Below are positions 6,713-25,979 of a stretch of DNA of 27,292 nucleotides, one piece after another. Under the pieces are notes generated by a model. The model had not been told where the DNA came from, did no database searches, and saw only the letters and a list, made by a program, of their open reading frames with translations. The first letter of the stretch is position 1. Every line of letters starts with the position of its first letter. Both the position numbers and the translations under genes were made by a program. This stretch comes from a virus (taxonomy: Duplodnaviria; Heunggongvirae; Uroviricota; Caudoviricetes): positions 1 to 27,292 of IMG/VR virus record IMGVR_UViG_3300031867_000016; one strand, written 5' to 3'.

Positions 6713-6729
6713 AATATTGATAAAAAGAA

Positions 6730-6757
6730 GGCTCCGTGCTACAATAAGCACGGAGCC
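6730..6757 (-). terminator. Terminator after the RNase H gene
   Basis: 11-bp stem GGCTCCGTGCT/AGCACGGAGCC followed by TTCTTTTT on the minus strand. Confidence 0.75.
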
Positions 6758-6765
6758 GTTCTGTG

Positions 6766-7572
6766 TTATTTTGCGGCTGCGATTGCGGCTCTTGCCAGAG
6801 AGTCGCATTTTTCATTGAGTTCAATGCCGGCATGACCTTCAACTTTTACGATTGTTACGTCGTGCTTTGTCATCAGTTCTGCCAGCTTTTCAAGCAGATC
6901 TTTATTTGCAGCTTCTTTGTTGTCAGCTGTCCTGTAGCCGTGCTTAATGATCTGCGGAGCTCTTGTCACAACCTGAGAGTCAGTGTGAACAAGTACGACA
7001 CTATGTTTCTTAATTGCGGCAAGACCATTGATAACAGCAGCAAGTTCGCCACGGTTGTTCGTCTGCTTGCCGTCAACAAGGCCATTGAGTTCTTTGTGGT
7101 GTTCACCAAAGATCAGAATGCAGCCCCAGCCAGCCTTGGCATTTGCGTTACCGTTGTTGCTGCAGGCACCATCTACCCAGAGATCAATAGTTGGGATGGA
7201 AGCAGTACTGTCTTTTGCGATCTGCTTTGTTTCTTCAGTCTTATTGATTGCAACGCCATTAGTACGGTATGTCCTGTCAATATAAAATGCCGGGACATTC
7301 TTGCTCTTAGCACGAGCAAGCAATGCTTCAGCTTCATCAATAGAATTGACTTTTGTGTTCTTCTTGATACCGTCATAAAGATAGAATACAGAGATACTGG
7401 TGTTCATAGTTGCTTCCTCTTTAATTTCCTCAACTGTTTCGTTTTTGTTGTTTTTGAAAGATGCTTCGGATACGTTGCATTTGATCTTATCAAACCAGAG
7501 TTTTGCTAACGCATCATCAGCAAAAGATCTTGATACTTTGATTCCTTCTTTAGTCCAGTTAACAATAGCCAT
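6766..7572 (-). CDS. rnhA: Ribonuclease HI with a ~120-aa N-terminal extension, 268 aa
   Basis: WVDGACSNNG, TNNRGELAA, HTDSQ, VKVEGHAG and NEKCDSLA supply the D-E-D-D catalytic set. Start moved to MAIVNW behind GGAGG. Confidence 0.93.
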   Translation of the reverse strand: MAIVNWTKEGIKVSRSFADDALAKLWFDKIKCNVSEASFKNNKNETVEEIKEEATMNTSISVFYLYDGIKKNTKVNSIDEAEALLARAKSKNVPAFYIDRTYRTNGVAINKTEETKQIAKDSTASIPTIDLWVDGACSNNGNANAKAGWGCILIFGEHHKELNGLVDGKQTNNRGELAAVINGLAAIKKHSVVLVHTDSQVVTRAPQIIKHGYRTADNKEAANKDLLEKLAELMTKHDVTIVKVEGHAGIELNEKCDSLARAAIAAAK

Positions 7573-7896: not shown

Positions 7897-10434
7897 TTAT
7901 TCATCAATTGAGAAGAGTCCATCTTCATCGTCTTCAGGCGGGCAATCAAAGCAGTCTTCATACCCTTCGATAACGACTTCATCTTCGGCTTCGTCGAGTT
8001 CAGAAGCAACAAAGTTTCCGCTTGCGACAGCGTCTTTGATATTCTGAAGCAGTTCTTCGCCGAATGCCAGCCAAAGAAGGCGGAACCTTCCAAGACGAGC
8101 TTTCTCAGTATTGTCAGTACGCTTGTAACAATCTTTTACAAGAGCTGTTACAGCCTCGGCTTTGTTATAGCCATGCTCGGCAGCATACTCGAAAACAGCT
8201 TTGCGAGTTTCGGAAATATTCCATTCAGACCATGATGTAAGATTGATAACTGAAGCATTGTTAGTCTTCAGCATTTCCATGTACTGCTGTCTGCGTTCGC
8301 TTGCTTTCGCAGCAAATACACCGCCAAGACCAGCAAGCATTCTGGCATTAGTTGTTCCACAAAGTGCAGTCCATTTGAATTCGCCAATGCCATCGACATC
8401 GAGATCGAGTTCGTCATTGGTTCCAGCCAATACATACTGACTGTATTTATCCATGGAGCAATTGTACATAAAGTCACATTTCTCAGATAGAGATGCAAAG
8501 CTCTTTTCGCCAGTACTTGACGGAGAGGACTTGGCATAGGCTACAGCCAACGGGCGCTTGAGCTTCTTGACTCTGTCGGAGATAGCTTTTGCAATATCAG
8601 ATACAACACCTTTACCTTTCGCCTCGTCAACAGCATTGGTCACTGCTGCTTCCATATGAGCATTGGAAATAATGTCATATTTCTGCACGAGAGTGCCGTC
8701 TTCTGTTTCCACGAGAGACGCATTGGCTTTCATCTTTGTTCCAGCCATCGCATAAATGCCGATGGGAGCAGGAACAATTGTACGGATAAGATCTTTAAAG
8801 TTCTCATCGCTTTCAGGCTTCTTCTTTGCACCCTGTGCCTTCCAGCGAACAAGTTTGTATCCACTGTTTTTGATTGCTTTTACCGCAGCATCAATGATCC
8901 AATCGATGACAATAAGCAATACTTTATCGCCATCAAAGTCTTTCTGCTGTAGCGCCATTTCGCAGCCATGCATTGAGCATGCTTCTGCATCAGTAGGAAA
9001 CAACCCAAGCAATTCTGCAGGAATCGCTTTAGACTGCTTGATAGAGAAATTCTTTCCAGGGAAAGGATTTCTTGCAGTCATCATACGGTTGCCAGGCTTT
9101 ACGAGACGGCAGACAGCTTCATTCGCATTGATCCAGCCTAAATCCGTTATATCGGTATAGCAACCGCCAATGTAATCAACAACTGCTACGATATCAGGGA
9201 CGCAGAAGACATAGCATCCCACTTTAAACATGCGACCGCCGGCTGCACGCCAGCGCTTTGACTTATATGAATCCTTTACAAGATTCATAATATAGTCGTC
9301 CTGAATAAGTTCAGGGTATGTCTTAATAGCTTCTCCAACAGCAGGAGATACAAGCTTAACTGCGTTTTCGATCTTCTTGTAAGAGTCAAGGAGTTCGATT
9401 GTGCGGTTAACTGCAAGATCGAGATCTTCTTCATCGAGATCGAGAGCTTGCATCATCTGGTAGGGAAGCTCAGCCATACGATGATGACTAAAAATGCAGA
9501 CATCAAACTGATGTCCGTATTTCTTGAATCCTTCCTGATACTCAGAGAAGTGATTCAATCTCTTCTCAGGATCCTGAGCCTTCTTTGCCTTGGCCCACTT
9601 GAAACTTGATTCGAAAGCAATGACCTGAACAGAGTGCAAGTCTACTTCATCTCCGAAGTAGTCTTTACGAATGAGACTGCCGCCATTAGCCTTGATGCGG
9701 CGCTCAAAAGCAGAACGCAGGATCGGCTGAAAGCAACCTTTGAATGCAGGAGCATCGGGACCGCAAGTCCAGTTTGGAAACTTGTGGTCAAGCACGGCCT
9801 GCCAGCAACGTTTGCGCTGCTCTTCATCCATTGACAGATCATCAATGATGTAAAGAAGCAGCCCGTCTGTTTCGGTTTCCTCCCAAGACTCCTTATGATT
9901 AACATCGATATCGTTTCCATCAATCCAAATGTAGCTATTGACACTATGCTTCGGACCTTCAAGATCAGGCAGAACGCAGACCTTGTCAATGTCGATTGGC
10001 GGGAGGAATTCCTTGACATCTTCAAAATTATCAAGAAACTCGTCCCAAAGAATGGAACGTGTAAACATGCGTGCATCCTTTTCTACCGCTGTGAATATAT
10101 CAAGGGACAGATTGAGTCCACAGCGGTACCAGGTCTTGATCTGAGCTGCGTATTTTTCGTCAGCCCAGATAGAGCTGGCTTCACGTGCATTTCCAGAGCC
10201 CATGCAGAAAGGGATATATTTCTTTCCTGCAAGCTCGATGCCATTTTCGAGATACTGTTCCAGATCTGCACGGGCATCGAGATCATCGGTGGCGTGATCA
10301 ACCACGATCACACTGTTGGAGGGAAGCCAGGAAAGGCGAGCCGCAGGGCCAGCGCCATGCAGCGTCTCTTTCGGATTGGTTTCGCTGATAGGCAGTGCAA
10401 TATCGAATTTGGGCATAGAAAACACTTTAGACAT
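7897..10434 (-). CDS. Phage single-subunit RNA polymerase, YonO-like (two-barrel/RdRP-related), 845 aa
   Basis: Catalytic DFDGD (QQKDFDGDKV), upstream ARNP, FKGCF and FESSFK motifs, size close to SPbeta YonO, and SPbeta-like virion genes nearby. Start moved to MSKVFS behind GGAGG. Confidence 0.85.
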   Translation of the reverse strand: MSKVFSMPKFDIALPISETNPKETLHGAGPAARLSWLPSNSVIVVDHATDDLDARADLEQYLENGIELAGKKYIPFCMGSGNAREASSIWADEKYAAQIKTWYRCGLNLSLDIFTAVEKDARMFTRSILWDEFLDNFEDVKEFLPPIDIDKVCVLPDLEGPKHSVNSYIWIDGNDIDVNHKESWEETETDGLLLYIIDDLSMDEEQRKRCWQAVLDHKFPNWTCGPDAPAFKGCFQPILRSAFERRIKANGGSLIRKDYFGDEVDLHSVQVIAFESSFKWAKAKKAQDPEKRLNHFSEYQEGFKKYGHQFDVCIFSHHRMAELPYQMMQALDLDEEDLDLAVNRTIELLDSYKKIENAVKLVSPAVGEAIKTYPELIQDDYIMNLVKDSYKSKRWRAAGGRMFKVGCYVFCVPDIVAVVDYIGGCYTDITDLGWINANEAVCRLVKPGNRMMTARNPFPGKNFSIKQSKAIPAELLGLFPTDAEACSMHGCEMALQQKDFDGDKVLLIVIDWIIDAAVKAIKNSGYKLVRWKAQGAKKKPESDENFKDLIRTIVPAPIGIYAMAGTKMKANASLVETEDGTLVQKYDIISNAHMEAAVTNAVDEAKGKGVVSDIAKAISDRVKKLKRPLAVAYAKSSPSSTGEKSFASLSEKCDFMYNCSMDKYSQYVLAGTNDELDLDVDGIGEFKWTALCGTTNARMLAGLGGVFAAKASERRQQYMEMLKTNNASVINLTSWSEWNISETRKAVFEYAAEHGYNKAEAVTALVKDCYKRTDNTEKARLGRFRLLWLAFGEELLQNIKDAVASGNFVASELDEAEDEVVIEGYEDCFDCPPEDDEDGLFSIDE

Positions 10435-10755
10435 TTTTAGACCTCCATTTTGTTTGCTTTCATACTTGCTATTTGACAACAGCAAGTGCTATAATGAAAC
10501 ATGCAATCGTCTCGCTATCAACGATTGATGTTAGCTCTTTTGGCGAGCCAAACCAAAAAGCACCAACGTAACCGAGATTGCGTTGGTGCGCATGCAGAGA
10601 CTGCTGCATCAGGGTTGGCAGGTTCCTCTTCCTGTTATAGTATGAACCAGCAGGAAGTAAGCCTGCTGGGGCACTCAGTTATTCTTCCTCTCAAGTACGA
10701 ACTCATGCTTTTCAGCATCCCAGGTGAGAACGTACTGATTGGTAGACAAGTGCCT

Positions 10756-10833
10756 TCATAGATCGTTACGTTTCGATGATTTCTGGGTCATCAGCCACGT
10801 AAATTGATCTATGTTCAACTTCACTTGGTTCAC
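10756..10833 (-). CDS. Possible 25-aa peptide (MNQVKLNIDQFTWLMTQKSSKRNDL)
   Basis: Strong AAAGGAGGTGA RBS before a GTG; very short. Confidence 0.35.
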   Translation of the reverse strand: MNQVKLNIDQFTWLMTQKSSKRNDL

Positions 10834-10863
10834 TGGAATCACCTCCTTTCGAACCAAGGCGAA

Positions 10864-10899
10864 CTCCAGATATGCTGCAACATATCTGGAGTCTTTTTT
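10864..10899 (+). terminator. Rightward-facing terminator-like hairpin
   Basis: 11-bp stem CTCCAGATATG/CATATCTGGAG followed by TCTTTTTT. Confidence 0.5.
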
Positions 10900-11010
10900 G
10901 TTCTGCTTTCTTAAAGCTTGACGCTTATCGGTTGCGACCCCACTATTCTTTTCCTGGGCTTGTGACCAGCACCTTACGGTGGCGCATTAAGGCTTCCGCC
11001 TCACTCTGTA

Positions 11011-11039
11011 TTGCAAAAGAACAACCTCGCTGTTATAAT
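11011..11039 (+). promoter_or_regulatory. SigA-type promoter facing right (antisense to the early arm)
   Basis: TTGCAA-17 bp-TATAAT with an extended -10 TG. The -10 box is the loop of a 16-bp inverted repeat (11018-11056). Confidence 0.7.
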
Positions 11040-11061
11040 TACAGCGAGGTTGTTCTGCTCG

Positions 11062-11193
11062 TCACTCCGCTAGACGAATGGCGAGCATGATAAAAATGGT
11101 AACCCAAAGGATGCCGACGAGTATACCACCAAGAATATTTTTGACATACTCGTCCTGCTCCCAGGGCTGCATGTCGCGATAACGCTTACGCAT
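11062..11193 (-). CDS. 43-aa single-transmembrane peptide, candidate type I toxin (MRKRYRDMQPWEQDEYVKNILGGILVGILWVTIFIMLAIRLAE)
   Basis: Not in the ORF track. GAAAGGAGG RBS and ATG at 11193; one long hydrophobic helix; hairpin plus U tract right after the stop codon. Confidence 0.75.
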   Translation of the reverse strand: MRKRYRDMQPWEQDEYVKNILGGILVGILWVTIFIMLAIRLAE

Positions 11194-11210
11194 ACCGCAA
11201 CCTCCTTTCT

Positions 11211-11238
11211 AGCTCGTGTTGCCGCACGAGCTTTTTTT
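11211..11238 (+). terminator. Rightward intrinsic terminator (end of the putative antisense RNA)
   Basis: AGCTCGTG/CACGAGCT stem followed by a T tract. Confidence 0.65.
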
Positions 11239-11323
11239 ATTTCAGGCATAACCTGAAAAGAACACCAGCGATGCTGATGCTCTTTTCAAGTGAGCGGTTT
11301 ACGTGACGCTCAGCACGATTGAA

Positions 11324-11641
11324 TTAGATCTGTTTTGATACCCAGAAGTCGAGTTCAGGATAGCCCTCAATAGCTTCGAAGGCTTCCTCTTCGGTGTCGT
11401 AATCACCGAACACTTCAATAGTGTCGGTATAATTGTTATAAAACGTGACGATATATTTCTTCATGATAGGCACCTCCTGTTCGCCCATATAAAAATCGTA
11501 TTCAAGATGATCGTCAATTAATTTTCCGATTGCTTCGGACGCTTCCTCTTCAGTGTCATAATCACCCAGAAACTTTTTCTCATCAGTAAAATTGTCGTAA
11601 AAAGTAACCCTGATCTTCTTCATAAACCTGATCTTCTTCAT
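11324..11641 (-). CDS. Hypothetical protein of two ~50-aa repeats, 105 aa
   Basis: Repeats share VTFY.N.TD and GDYDTEEEA.EAI. Start behind AAGGAGG; internal RBS plus ATG at 11464. Confidence 0.8.
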   Translation of the reverse strand: MKKIRFMKKIRVTFYDNFTDEKKFLGDYDTEEEASEAIGKLIDDHLEYDFYMGEQEVPIMKKYIVTFYNNYTDTIEVFGDYDTEEEAFEAIEGYPELDFWVSKQI

Positions 11642-11733
11642 AAAAGTCCTCCTTTTATTGTTGCCAATGGCAATAAAATAATATAAAATAGAAATGGACA
11701 GGAGCCCAGCGCCTCTTACACTGGGCTCGAGTA

Positions 11734-11916
11734 TCATCGAGCTACCGCTTCGATGATGGCTTGGATTTCAGCGCCGTAACATTGCAGCACTTCTGCAACA
11801 GCCGCAATGTCATCTTCAGTTACGTTGTCATTTGCAATGACTGCACGTAGCTTAGAGACAAAGGGCGTGTTATTCAGAAGGAATGAAACGGTGCTGGTAC
11901 AGAGGGTACGCTCCAT
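11734..11916 (-). CDS. Hypothetical protein, 60 aa
   Basis: GAAAGGAG RBS. Confidence 0.7.
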   Translation of the reverse strand: MERTLCTSTVSFLLNNTPFVSKLRAVIANDNVTEDDIAAVAEVLQCYGAEIQAIIEAVAR

Positions 11917-11980
11917 ACCGTTACTCCTTTCTGTCCATATGGTGCGCTGTACGCACCTTGTGATTGAGGCTTGATTGCCT

Positions 11981-12020
11981 CAATAAAAGAGCAGTAGTTT
12001 TTGCTACTGCTCTTTTATTG
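11981..12020. terminator. Long palindrome, bidirectional terminator-like
   Basis: 17-bp perfect stem CAATAAAAGAGCAGTAG/CTACTGCTCTTTTATTG. Confidence 0.65.
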
Positions 12021-12067
12021 AAGAAACCAAAGGAGCAGTTTAGCGTCATGCTTAGGACGGAAGAATA

Positions 12068-12385
12068 TTAGGAGATATGATCTTCAGGATATTCTTCATT
12101 ATAGTAGTGGTAGAAGTCTACCACTACTTCCATGATACGTTTCGTTGCATCATTTTTCTTCGTTAGCATATTGTCAATGCTCACGAAAGCAGATGCAATG
12201 GCCGAGTCTCGGCCATACTTGTTTTTACACAAGAATGGATAAGACTTTTCCTGTAGTACAATATTATCTTTGTAAGTGGTTATTTTCCAATAGCCACTTA
12301 TTGTGTCTGCTGCTGCACCAGCAAACACTTCGATGTAAACGTTTTTGTCGTTGACGATGATGTCAACGTCATAGATCTTCTTCAT
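12068..12385 (-). CDS. Hypothetical protein, 105 aa (first gene of the leftward arm)
   Basis: AAAGAGG RBS; ORF track. Confidence 0.75.
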   Translation of the reverse strand: MKKIYDVDIIVNDKNVYIEVFAGAAADTISGYWKITTYKDNIVLQEKSYPFLCKNKYGRDSAIASAFVSIDNMLTKKNDATKRIMEVVVDFYHYYNEEYPEDHIS

Positions 12386-12593
12386 AAGGATACCTCTTTC
12401 TGTCGCTGTGCGACGTATTATTTTTTACAAAACCCCGGGACTTTCCGTTGAAAAGTTTTTTCTGGGTTTTGTATCTTCATATCTACTCCATTCCAACTCT
12501 CTCGTCTCCCTCTAAAAATGTAGACATTCGAAAAAAACGATAATGGGGAGAGAATAATGCTCAGCTTAGGCTGGGCTATATTTTTTTTGGGAG

Positions 12594-12848
12594 ATGATTA
12601 TCTTGAGATTAACGCCTGAACATCAACAGCATTTGCAAGATCTTATTGATCTCTGCGACGGCAACGTCTTCATGAACGACTATGCCCATGGGGAAATATG
12701 TATCACAGAACCTGGTGGCTTGCAGAAAGCTCTTGACTTTATTAAAGACAACCCAAACATCCCATATGAATTAACCTATGATGAATTGTGCGATGAAAAC
12801 TATGTTTATCATCTTGGCAATGATCTTAGGGATACAACATTCGACTGA
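12594..12848 (+). CDS. Hypothetical protein, ~84 aa (start may be TTG at 12603)
   Basis: ORF track; GGAG lies directly before the ATG, so a downstream start is possible. Confidence 0.65.
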   Translation: MIILRLTPEHQQHLQDLIDLCDGNVFMNDYAHGEICITEPGGLQKALDFIKDNPNIPYELTYDELCDENYVYHLGNDLRDTTFD

Positions 12849-24885: not shown

Positions 24886-25979
24886 ATGGCACTTACTTAT
24901 ATGCCTAAGTATCAGGGTTACATTACTGACGTACCTAAGGTGTGGTTTAAGCGCAAGGCTGATAAGAAGCTTTTCCACTTTGACCAGCTGAGTGAATTCT
25001 CGTCTACGCCAAACGTTCAGTACAATGAAGTTAACGCTAAGTAACACTGGCGCTTTATGTGGTGACGCATATCGAATAAACTGCCTAAACGGAGAAACTC
25101 CTGTATAGTAAAGGGATGTGCAGGACAACTTACCGTGCTAAATTAATGCAAGGCAAGGCAAAGGTTATATCAAGGAATTGGAACAGGCGAATTATAAAAG
25201 CCTAACGACTAAGTGCATCAAGCGATGTGAATGGTAGTAGTCTCTCATGAGACTGTGATATAGTCTGATCTGCATGGTAACATGCAGCAGCACATTATGT
25301 GCGGGTATGGTCCAGCGAACCATGCTGAACATTTATGGGTTGGTCCCTTTTCCCTGTGGCTTACCTCCCGGGTCAGTCCACTTTCGAAGTCTCTATGACT
25401 TCTCTGCAGTTTGATGCCTCTCTGTTTGAACTGTCCAACGGTGCGAACTTTGAGAAGGAAACCATCACTCTGCCTACAACTGGTTTCTATGAAGTTACCG
25501 ATGGCGCTGTTGTTCTGAAGACCAATGCTTCTATCAAGGATACCATCGAGATCGATGGCCTGCAGCCTGGCGAGGAAGATGGTCCTGGTGTGTTCACCGT
25601 GACCGAGACTGAGCCTGCTGAGGAAGGCGGTCAGTACACGACCACTATCAAGATTACCGATAATGCTTCTTCTGTTCAGGTTACGTACTATGAGGAAAAG
25701 GAAGTTACCGGTGCTGGCATCGATAACCGTACAACCGCTATCGGTGAAATGACCATGATCTGGCCTATCTACGGTTCTGGCGACGAAGAGAACGCTGTCC
25801 GTGGTGCTGACGTTAAGGGTTACGTTGTTGAGATCATCTATCGTGCTCGTATTACTCAGGGCGCTGGCTTCAACACGAACTACAAGAATGTTTCCGGTAA
25901 CCAGATTACTGTGAGCGCAATGGATCCTCATCGTGCTGATGAACGCATCTATTATGTCGCTTACTTTGACAAGACCTGA
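24886..25979 (+). CDS. Major tail (tube) protein, split gene: join(24886..25038,25338..25979), 264 aa
   Basis: Exon 1 (51 codons, MALTYMPKYQGY...NEVNA) joins in frame to GWSLFPVAYL...; followed by a terminator and the chaperone gene. Confidence 0.85.
25039..25337 (+). ncRNA. Group I self-splicing intron (IA-like), 299 nt, no homing endonuclease
   Basis: U at the 5' splice site and terminal G. IGS ACUGGCG pairs the ligated exons CGCU/GGU. P3 ACUGCC(25080)/GGUAGU(25233), P7 GACUA(25207)/UAGUC(25261), P7.1, P8, and P9 CUGCAUG-GUAA-CAUGCAG. Confidence 0.93.

Follow-up and report, generated by a model that had tools for sequence, protein, structure and literature searches.

The locus considered here raises the question of whether a small membrane-peptide gene in the early region of a phage genome is gated by an RNA read from its opposite strand, or whether it is an ordinary small early gene beside which the signals for such an RNA are fortuitous. 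The gene lies on the minus strand at 11062–11193 of the window, the 27.3-kb stretch of DNA (27,292 nt) that was analyzed as a whole and that forms the first part of a 113,010-bp IMG/VR viral contig with a GC content of 41.9% and an estimated completeness of 95% (CheckV). Genes are encoded on the minus strand from ~12385 to position 1, and the structural genes run rightward from 12594; the peptide locus is found ~1.2 kb into the leftward early block. The contig also carries a tyrosine integrase gene at 51712–52266, and the phage is therefore probably temperate; for the same reason, lysogeny maintained with host RNA polymerase alone is plausible.

The locus is flanked on one side by small DUF7336-like genes (11324–11737) and on the other by a gene encoding a YonO-like protein of 845–862 residues (7897–10434/10485). 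The former region is annotated as a 137-residue ORF on the minus strand that resembles two or three tandem small genes, each with its own Shine-Dalgarno sequence (SD), with the common motif TFY(D/N)N(F/Y)TD...FGDYDTEEEA.EAI (DUF7336, E = 2e-6). The YonO-like protein matches PHROG 8308 (E = 4e-41) and, by tblastn, shows ~23% identity, across 54% of its length, with the YonO region of SPbeta and likewise ~23% identity with the "RdRP" of Psychrobacillus phage Perkons; searches of IMG/VR, of GTDB genomes, and of the protein collection gave no relatives of it. [quoted passage not shown] The preliminary description of the locus had pointed to SPbeta and its type I systems as a precedent, an analogy that is weak for the phage as such, since the YonO-like RNA polymerase at ~23% identity is the only link between the two. 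A nucleotide search of phage records gave no DNA match to any of them, and there is no close gene or DNA similarity to SPbeta that would place the phage among the SPbeta-like phages (Spbetavirus); judged by this comparison, it appears SPbeta-like remotely at most. Synteny with SPbeta yonT near yonO was also considered and rejected, as phage BUCT083 has only unrelated small genes next to its yonO.

The minus-strand ORF, with its TGA stop codon included in the span given above, encodes the 43-residue peptide MRKRYRDMQPWEQDEYVKNILGGILVGILWVTIFIMLAIRLAE and is preceded by the SD AAAGGAGG at 11201–11208, 7 nt 5′ of the ATG. The peptide is composed of a charged segment (residues 1–19, five K/R and four D/E), a transmembrane (TM) helix spanning residues 20–39 with a Kyte-Doolittle mean of 2.62 over 19 residues, and the C-terminal residues RLAE. 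The perfect ribosome-binding site, charged N terminus, and single TM helix that had been described for this ORF are thus all in place. Because five of the six K/R residues precede the TM helix, an N-in topology is predicted. The codon-usage log-odds score of the ORF is coding-like, falling between the 23rd and 32nd percentiles of true in-frame 43-codon windows, and is reached by 3.4% of stop-free off-frame windows of the same length. SD-led small ORFs (20–75 residues) with a TM segment occur only twice in the 113-kb genome, the peptide ORF being one of the two, and the genome contains no paralogous copies of the peptide. Plus-strand ORFs at 11078–11182, 10872–11090, and 10501–10761 were rejected as genes, having noncoding codon use and no SD, and alternative-frame ORFs that overlap the peptide gene score as noncoding as well. 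Judged by its SD, codon use, and TM helix, the peptide gene looks real, and the cassette is a real small-gene unit; the operon to which it belongs is early and leftward, and the phage is temperate, uncultured, and of Firmicute type. The ORF had been put forward as one missed by gene calling, which does not hold generally, as it is already called as a 43-residue protein in a public collection (P0001).

The sequence also admits a reading in which the 43 codons are untranslated, the SD is fortuitous, and the locus is a structured noncoding leader or sRNA gene. The minus-strand RNA at 11005–11260 is very strongly structured (z = −9), the peptide ATG is buried inside a local 12-bp hairpin with a GUAA loop, and the peptide has no homologue, all of which would suit a noncoding RNA. 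However, the SD is perfect, ideally spaced, and unpaired in the predicted fold, the codon use is coding-like, chance would be unlikely to produce a hydrophobic helix of 20 residues with charges on both sides, and a gene caller also predicted the ORF. We regard an untranslated locus as very improbable. No convincing sigma-A promoter for a peptide mRNA is found on the minus strand in 11194–12600, and because a promoter of its own is not visible, the peptide is probably encoded on a polycistronic transcript.

Relatives of the peptide were sought in several collections. A tblastn search against 50,697 phage records gave no homologue, a word-indexed search of 5.8e9 proteins gave the peptide itself alone, and a full HMMER scan of 1.84e9 representatives gave the peptide itself plus repetitive junk matches. 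Likewise, degenerate DNA patterns located no homologue in IMG/VR and JGI metagenomes, and no toxin or other protein family in Pfam, NCBIfam, PHROGs, or PADLOC is matched. The peptide has no homology to the described toxin families (Fst/Ldr, TxpA/BsrG, YonT, Hok, Ibs, and others). In the ESM Atlas, the only look-alikes are below threshold (0.86), with YqzM no stronger than a lead. By these searches, the peptide appears to be an orphan.

Opposite the peptide gene, the plus strand carries a sigma-A-type promoter, TTGCAA-17-TGtTATAAT, at 11011–11039. Its elements are TTGCAA at 11011–11016, a spacing of 17 nt, TG at 11031–11032, and TATAAT at 11034–11039, and transcription antisense to the peptide gene is predicted to start near 11046. 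An intrinsic terminator follows at 11211–11238, in which a 9-bp stem with a 4-nt loop (11211–11232; −13.7 kcal/mol) leads into seven consecutive T residues at 11232–11238, the first of which closes the stem. On the minus-strand RNA, the same element is a hairpin preceded by A7 and located 2 nt upstream of the SD; it appears to have no obvious role in that orientation and has the form of a canonical terminator on the plus strand. The preliminary description had proposed a near-consensus SigA promoter directed across the ORF and its ribosome-binding site, a terminator, and a fully complementary RNA of ~190 nt; the promoter and terminator signals are in place, and together they predict an RNA of this length. 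The predicted cis-antisense RNA (~11046–11238, plus strand), as defined by promoter and terminator signals only, spans the peptide ORF and its SD and nothing else. Such exact bracketing of an ORF and its SD corresponds to the geometry of a small membrane protein under cis-antisense control. No known RNA family is recognized over the antisense unit, where an Rfam scan returned chance-level miRNA, ctRNA, and sRNA matches over the hairpins only.

The promoter match by itself occurs at chance frequency genome-wide: matches to the extended −10 promoter at 10/12 positions or better number three in the 113-kb genome, compared with 2.6 ± 1.4 in Markov sequences. In addition, promoter-like matches in the early block lean to the plus strand by composition (26 of 35). 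Both observations favor an alternative in which the locus is an ordinary early cassette punctuated by ribozymes and hairpins and has no functional antisense RNA. In such a cassette, the promoter match would be a by-product of an AT-rich hairpin loop beside a U-tract, and the terminator would insulate the operon from stray antisense transcription. Left unexplained by this alternative is the context in which the matches occur. All three are plus-strand matches confined to a 4.3-kb part of the early block (at 6717, 10466, and 11011), and each is followed by a terminator on the same strand, at distances of 39, 368, and 172 nt, respectively. The probability of this 3/3 coupling, obtained by arithmetic from 22 terminators in 226 kb of strand, is ~7e-5 under a genome-wide null and ~1–5% under a local null; terminator-like sites in the region number 40, compared with 11.6 ± 3.2 in shuffled sequences. 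A −10 box positioned exactly in a hairpin loop, with a matching −35 element at the right spacing and TG, is found for two of the 92 long hairpins in the genome, both in these units, and is likewise left unexplained. The same is true of the plus-strand terminators that abut the perfect SD of a small minus-strand ORF, which occur twice (11211 and 10863); in both, an A-run precedes the SD on the minus strand, where it has no role. Furthermore, Firmicute promoters that combine an extended −10 element with a perfect TATAAT are as a rule active, which sits poorly with a fortuitous match. The promoter-terminator context is nonrandom, and these signals make a real plus-strand transcription unit likely.

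The two sister units differ in their arrangement. The unit at 6717–6815 (plus strand) has the promoter TTGATA-17-TGcTACAAT, the −10 element of which is located in the loop of the terminator hairpin (6730–6757) that ends the RNase H gene. Its own terminator (6784–6807, followed by a T-run) falls within the 3′ end of the RNase H gene, and the unit predicts an antisense RNA of ~60 nt. The unit at 10466–10900 (plus strand) has the promoter TTGCTA-18-TGcTATAAT at 10466–10495 and a strong terminator at 10863–10892 that is followed by a T-run and ends 12 nt from the perfect SD AAAGGAGGTG. This SD serves a 25-codon, nonhydrophobic ORF on the minus strand (10756–10833, with a GTG start at 10833), whose codon use is not convincingly coding.

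The placement of the units with respect to the YonO-like gene allows the peptide to be viewed as an incidental passenger. The units at 11011–11238 and 10466–10900 would then constitute a host-driven convergent lock on the RNA polymerase gene (7897–10434), with the halting of leaky leftward transcription in lysogens as their main job. Both units are located within 0.9 kb directly upstream, in the minus sense, of the polymerase gene, the phage is temperate, and YonO-type polymerases drive the late genes of SPbeta (PMC5467207). A further minus-strand terminator-like hairpin of 8–12 bp at 10563–10590, followed by the U-run sequence CUUUUUGGUUU and situated ~120 nt upstream of the start of the YonO-like gene, also fits a lock; transcripts running on into that gene may be attenuated by it. 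However, neither plus-strand RNA overlaps the translation start of the polymerase, the third unit (6717–6815) is downstream of the polymerase gene, and the terminators sit precisely at the SDs of small ORFs, an arrangement that suggests the ORFs as the targets. A lock directed at the polymerase gene is accordingly held to be improbable.

On the minus-strand RNA, the peptide cistron is bracketed by two long hairpins. The first, I1 (11018–11056), is a perfect 16-bp hairpin with arms at 11018–11033 and 11041–11056 that begins 5 nt after the peptide stop codon, and it has a predicted stability of −29.2 kcal/mol (z = −10). Its 7-nt loop, TATAATT, holds the −10 box of the plus-strand promoter. The second, I2 (11251–11291), is a 19-bp hairpin of −28.4 kcal/mol located upstream of the cistron, and its 3′ arm ends in GUUCUUUU, similar to the 3′ arm of I1. 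The inverted repeat downstream of the ORF had been described as carrying the antisense −10 box in its loop and as terminating the peptide mRNA; the first statement is correct, and the second is doubtful, as I1 is followed on the minus-strand RNA by UUUUG, a tail of only four U residues, and is scored as a minus-strand terminator by none of the scans. Long perfect stems are typical substrates of RNase III in phage early mRNAs. By their form, I1 and I2 may serve as processing sites of the RNase III type or as weak terminators. Since a twister-like element is located 24 nt downstream of I1, this hairpin may be a 3′-protective or stabilizing hairpin, or a processing hairpin, of a read-through message.

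The element downstream of I1, which the preliminary description does not mention, is a Twister-P1-like match (RF03160) at 10937–10993 on the minus strand, with a predicted cut between U10989 and A10988. In a permissive Rfam scan, it scores 35.4 bits (E = 2e-7 to 1e-5) against a gathering score of 67.2; the canonical phage copies score 50–68 bits (n = 10), and nine of these ten likewise fall under the gathering threshold. The L4 loop (consensus GUCNCAAGCC), P4, and the UAA cleavage-site motif are present, GGUCACAAGCCCAGG and CCUUAAUGC align to the model, and GCC, P3 with its GUAA loop, and the CAAGCC core are retained. Among the 58 IMG/VR loci that carry the twister core, which served as the comparison set, the variable base of L4 covaries perfectly with the N of GAGNG (A:U, U:A, C:G, and G:C). 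This covariation is that of the T1 pseudoknot, in which L4 pairs with the 3′ strand of L1. The copy in the window conforms to T1, with A paired to U, and the T2 pairing is present too. The main departures are found in P2, whose 3 bp are not intact (U-A, G.A, C-G, with the G.A mismatch at the center), and in the invariant GAG, which is replaced by UAG, unlike in all canonical copies. The element in the window is therefore best described as a divergent, possibly impaired twister, and from these features self-cleavage is judged slightly the less probable outcome.

In other phages, the order of elements is a GC-hairpin, the twister, and then an SD-led gene. In 8 of 29 nonredundant phage loci, a small membrane protein of 59–139 residues is encoded directly upstream of the hairpin and twister, by a gene whose end lies within a few nucleotides of them (IMG/VR contigs L009, L017, L034, L036, L041, L042, L043, and L046). 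The upstream proteins of L034, L042, and L036 have the motif GGE.LILPL in common. The resemblance bears directly on the alternative without a functional antisense RNA, in that the presence of small membrane genes upstream of twisters elsewhere could explain the cassette with no antisense unit at all. The peptide would then be one cistron of a polycistronic early message that is processed and stabilized by I2, I1, and the twister-like element, a role to which the long perfect hairpins on both sides of the cistron and the lack of a visible promoter for the peptide are well suited. Weighed together with the unexplained promoter-terminator context described above, such a cassette is somewhat unlikely to be the whole account of the locus. 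Similar to the present locus, the published phage and prophage cassettes punctuated by twister and hammerhead ribozymes comprise a small, often membrane-protein gene, a hairpin, a twister, and the next SD (PMC6765202; RF03160); the lower score, the P2 mismatch, and the U in place of the invariant G set the present copy apart, and the comparison is one of layout.

The antisense-gated reading invites comparison with systems in which an RNA silences the gene opposite to it. In the ibs/Sib loci of Escherichia coli, the cis-antisense RNA lies directly opposite the toxin gene and covers the whole ORF and its translation start. These loci are the closest in geometry to the arrangement predicted here, in which a small hydrophobic peptide gene lies under a fully overlapping cis-antisense RNA. 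The main differences are that the Ibs peptides are 18–19 residues long, proteobacterial, and encoded on the chromosome in tandem repeats, whereas the phage carries a single copy with no sequence similarity to them. Short antisense RNAs made by host polymerase from their own promoter and terminator are also known from phage lambda (OOP, opposite cII) and P22 (sar, opposite ant), in which they lower the expression of one early gene. Similar to OOP and sar, the unit at 11011–11238 has a predicted promoter and terminator of its own and is located in a phage early region, which provides a nontoxin alternative for the cassette; the 6717–6815 unit is OOP-like as well, overlapping only the 3′ end of a gene. 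In contrast to the present locus, OOP and sar target regulators rather than membrane peptides and belong to proteobacterial phages, and there is no sequence relation. The ibs/Sib loci (Fozo et al. 2008) are named in PMC2887945.

Type I toxins are small (<70 residues) and have a predicted TM region (PMC2887945), features that are shared by the 43-residue peptide with its helix at 20–39. The described Firmicute toxins have a polar or charged C-terminal region after the TM segment (PMC2887945, PMC6563280), whereas only RLAE follows the helix here and the charge is N-terminal. Firmicute prophages commonly carry type I modules (PMC6563280, PMC5848175), and the location of the present locus on a viral contig with a tyrosine integrase agrees with a prophage or mobile-element setting, which is common for type I systems and not obligatory. 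In the yonT/SR6 and bsrG/SR4 modules of Bacillus subtilis SPbeta, as predicted here, a prophage-borne small TM peptide is opposed by a convergent antisense RNA transcribed with host sigma-A (PMC5848175, PMC6562991). As is probable for the peptide, yonT is transcribed on a polycistronic mRNA (PMC5848175). In the SPbeta modules, overlap of the antisense RNA with the toxin mRNA is restricted to the 3′ end of the latter, whereas the predicted RNA covers the whole ORF. In addition, the SPbeta toxins have an N-terminal TM segment and a charged C-terminal tail, the reverse of the peptide described here, and no homology to it. The Clostridioides difficile prophage modules, such as CD0956.2/RCd10, pair orphan-like TM peptides of 34–59 residues with convergent antisense RNAs in prophages of gut Firmicutes and have been proposed to stabilize the prophage (PMC6563280, PMC5961336). 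They differ in that their toxins are experimentally validated and have a conserved hydrophobic N terminus and a lysine-rich C terminus; the present peptide is reversed in this respect and lacks homology to them. By analogy, the biology of the cassette would be closest to that of the type I modules carried by B. subtilis and C. difficile prophages.

The antisense-gated cassette may operate as follows. Host sigma-A RNA polymerase would initiate at 11011–11039 and stop at 11211–11238 to give the ~190-nt RNA, which would pair with the peptide mRNA, blocking ribosome binding and presenting a long duplex to RNase III. The peptide mRNA itself would probably be cut from the polycistronic transcript; the hairpins at both of its ends would stabilize it, and the ribozyme, if active, may determine its 3′ terminus. 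Convergent transcription would also hinder leftward read-through to the ribozyme and the gene for the YonO-like RNA polymerase. Synthesis of the peptide would be limited to times at which leftward phage transcription prevails over the antisense RNA, for instance after induction or infection, and any toxicity that it had would presumably be exerted at the membrane.

The cassette is plausible as an antisense-gated membrane-peptide unit, and a type I toxin-antitoxin-like mode of operation is given an even chance from the signals at hand. Speaking against antisense gating are the chance-level promoter count, the compositional bias toward the plus strand, the reversed charge of the peptide, and its want of an own promoter or paralogues. 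A true toxin-antitoxin function, which is a subset of the antisense-gated reading, is rather unlikely. The preliminary description had proposed a new type I toxin-antitoxin family or an antisense-gated peptide, of which the antisense bracket, the coding-like ORF, and the temperate nature of the phage speak in favor; the orphan status of the peptide and the N-terminal position of its charge do not. An extension to the whole early arm, in which the three host-sigma-A antisense units and the twister form a modular lock at the RNA level that silences the peptide and the approach to the RNA polymerase in lysogens, is decidedly improbable. In this extension, two of the units would have their promoters within loops of the very hairpins at which the opposing messages terminate, and induction would bring release. 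If such a lock were real, a new toxin family, ribozyme-defined mRNA ends, and a reusable "promoter-in-terminator-loop" design would be found together.

Should the antisense RNA and the peptide prove to be true partners, an unrelated peptide family of reverse topology would join the type I toxin-antitoxin-like modules, and such a module would be placed in an uncultured gut or rumen phage with a YonO-type RNA polymerase. The design would be compact, with the antisense promoter placed inside the loop of the hairpin with which the sense message ends; a promoter in a hairpin loop occurs two or more times in the genome, and other genomes could readily be searched for it. Fortuitous signals would leave the locus as a small early gene of the ordinary kind. 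The twister-like neighbor joins two poorly understood questions, namely what accounts for self-cleaving ribozymes next to small membrane-protein genes in phages and by what means these genes are silenced.

Structured RNA elements are also found elsewhere. In the L036 segment, two twister-P1 and four type II hammerhead matches occur within ~6 kb, forming a dense array of ribozyme-punctuated cassettes. In the window itself, a group I intron match is observed at 25029–25287 on the plus strand (50.5 bits, at threshold), and three tRNA genes are located at 1269–2859 on the minus strand.
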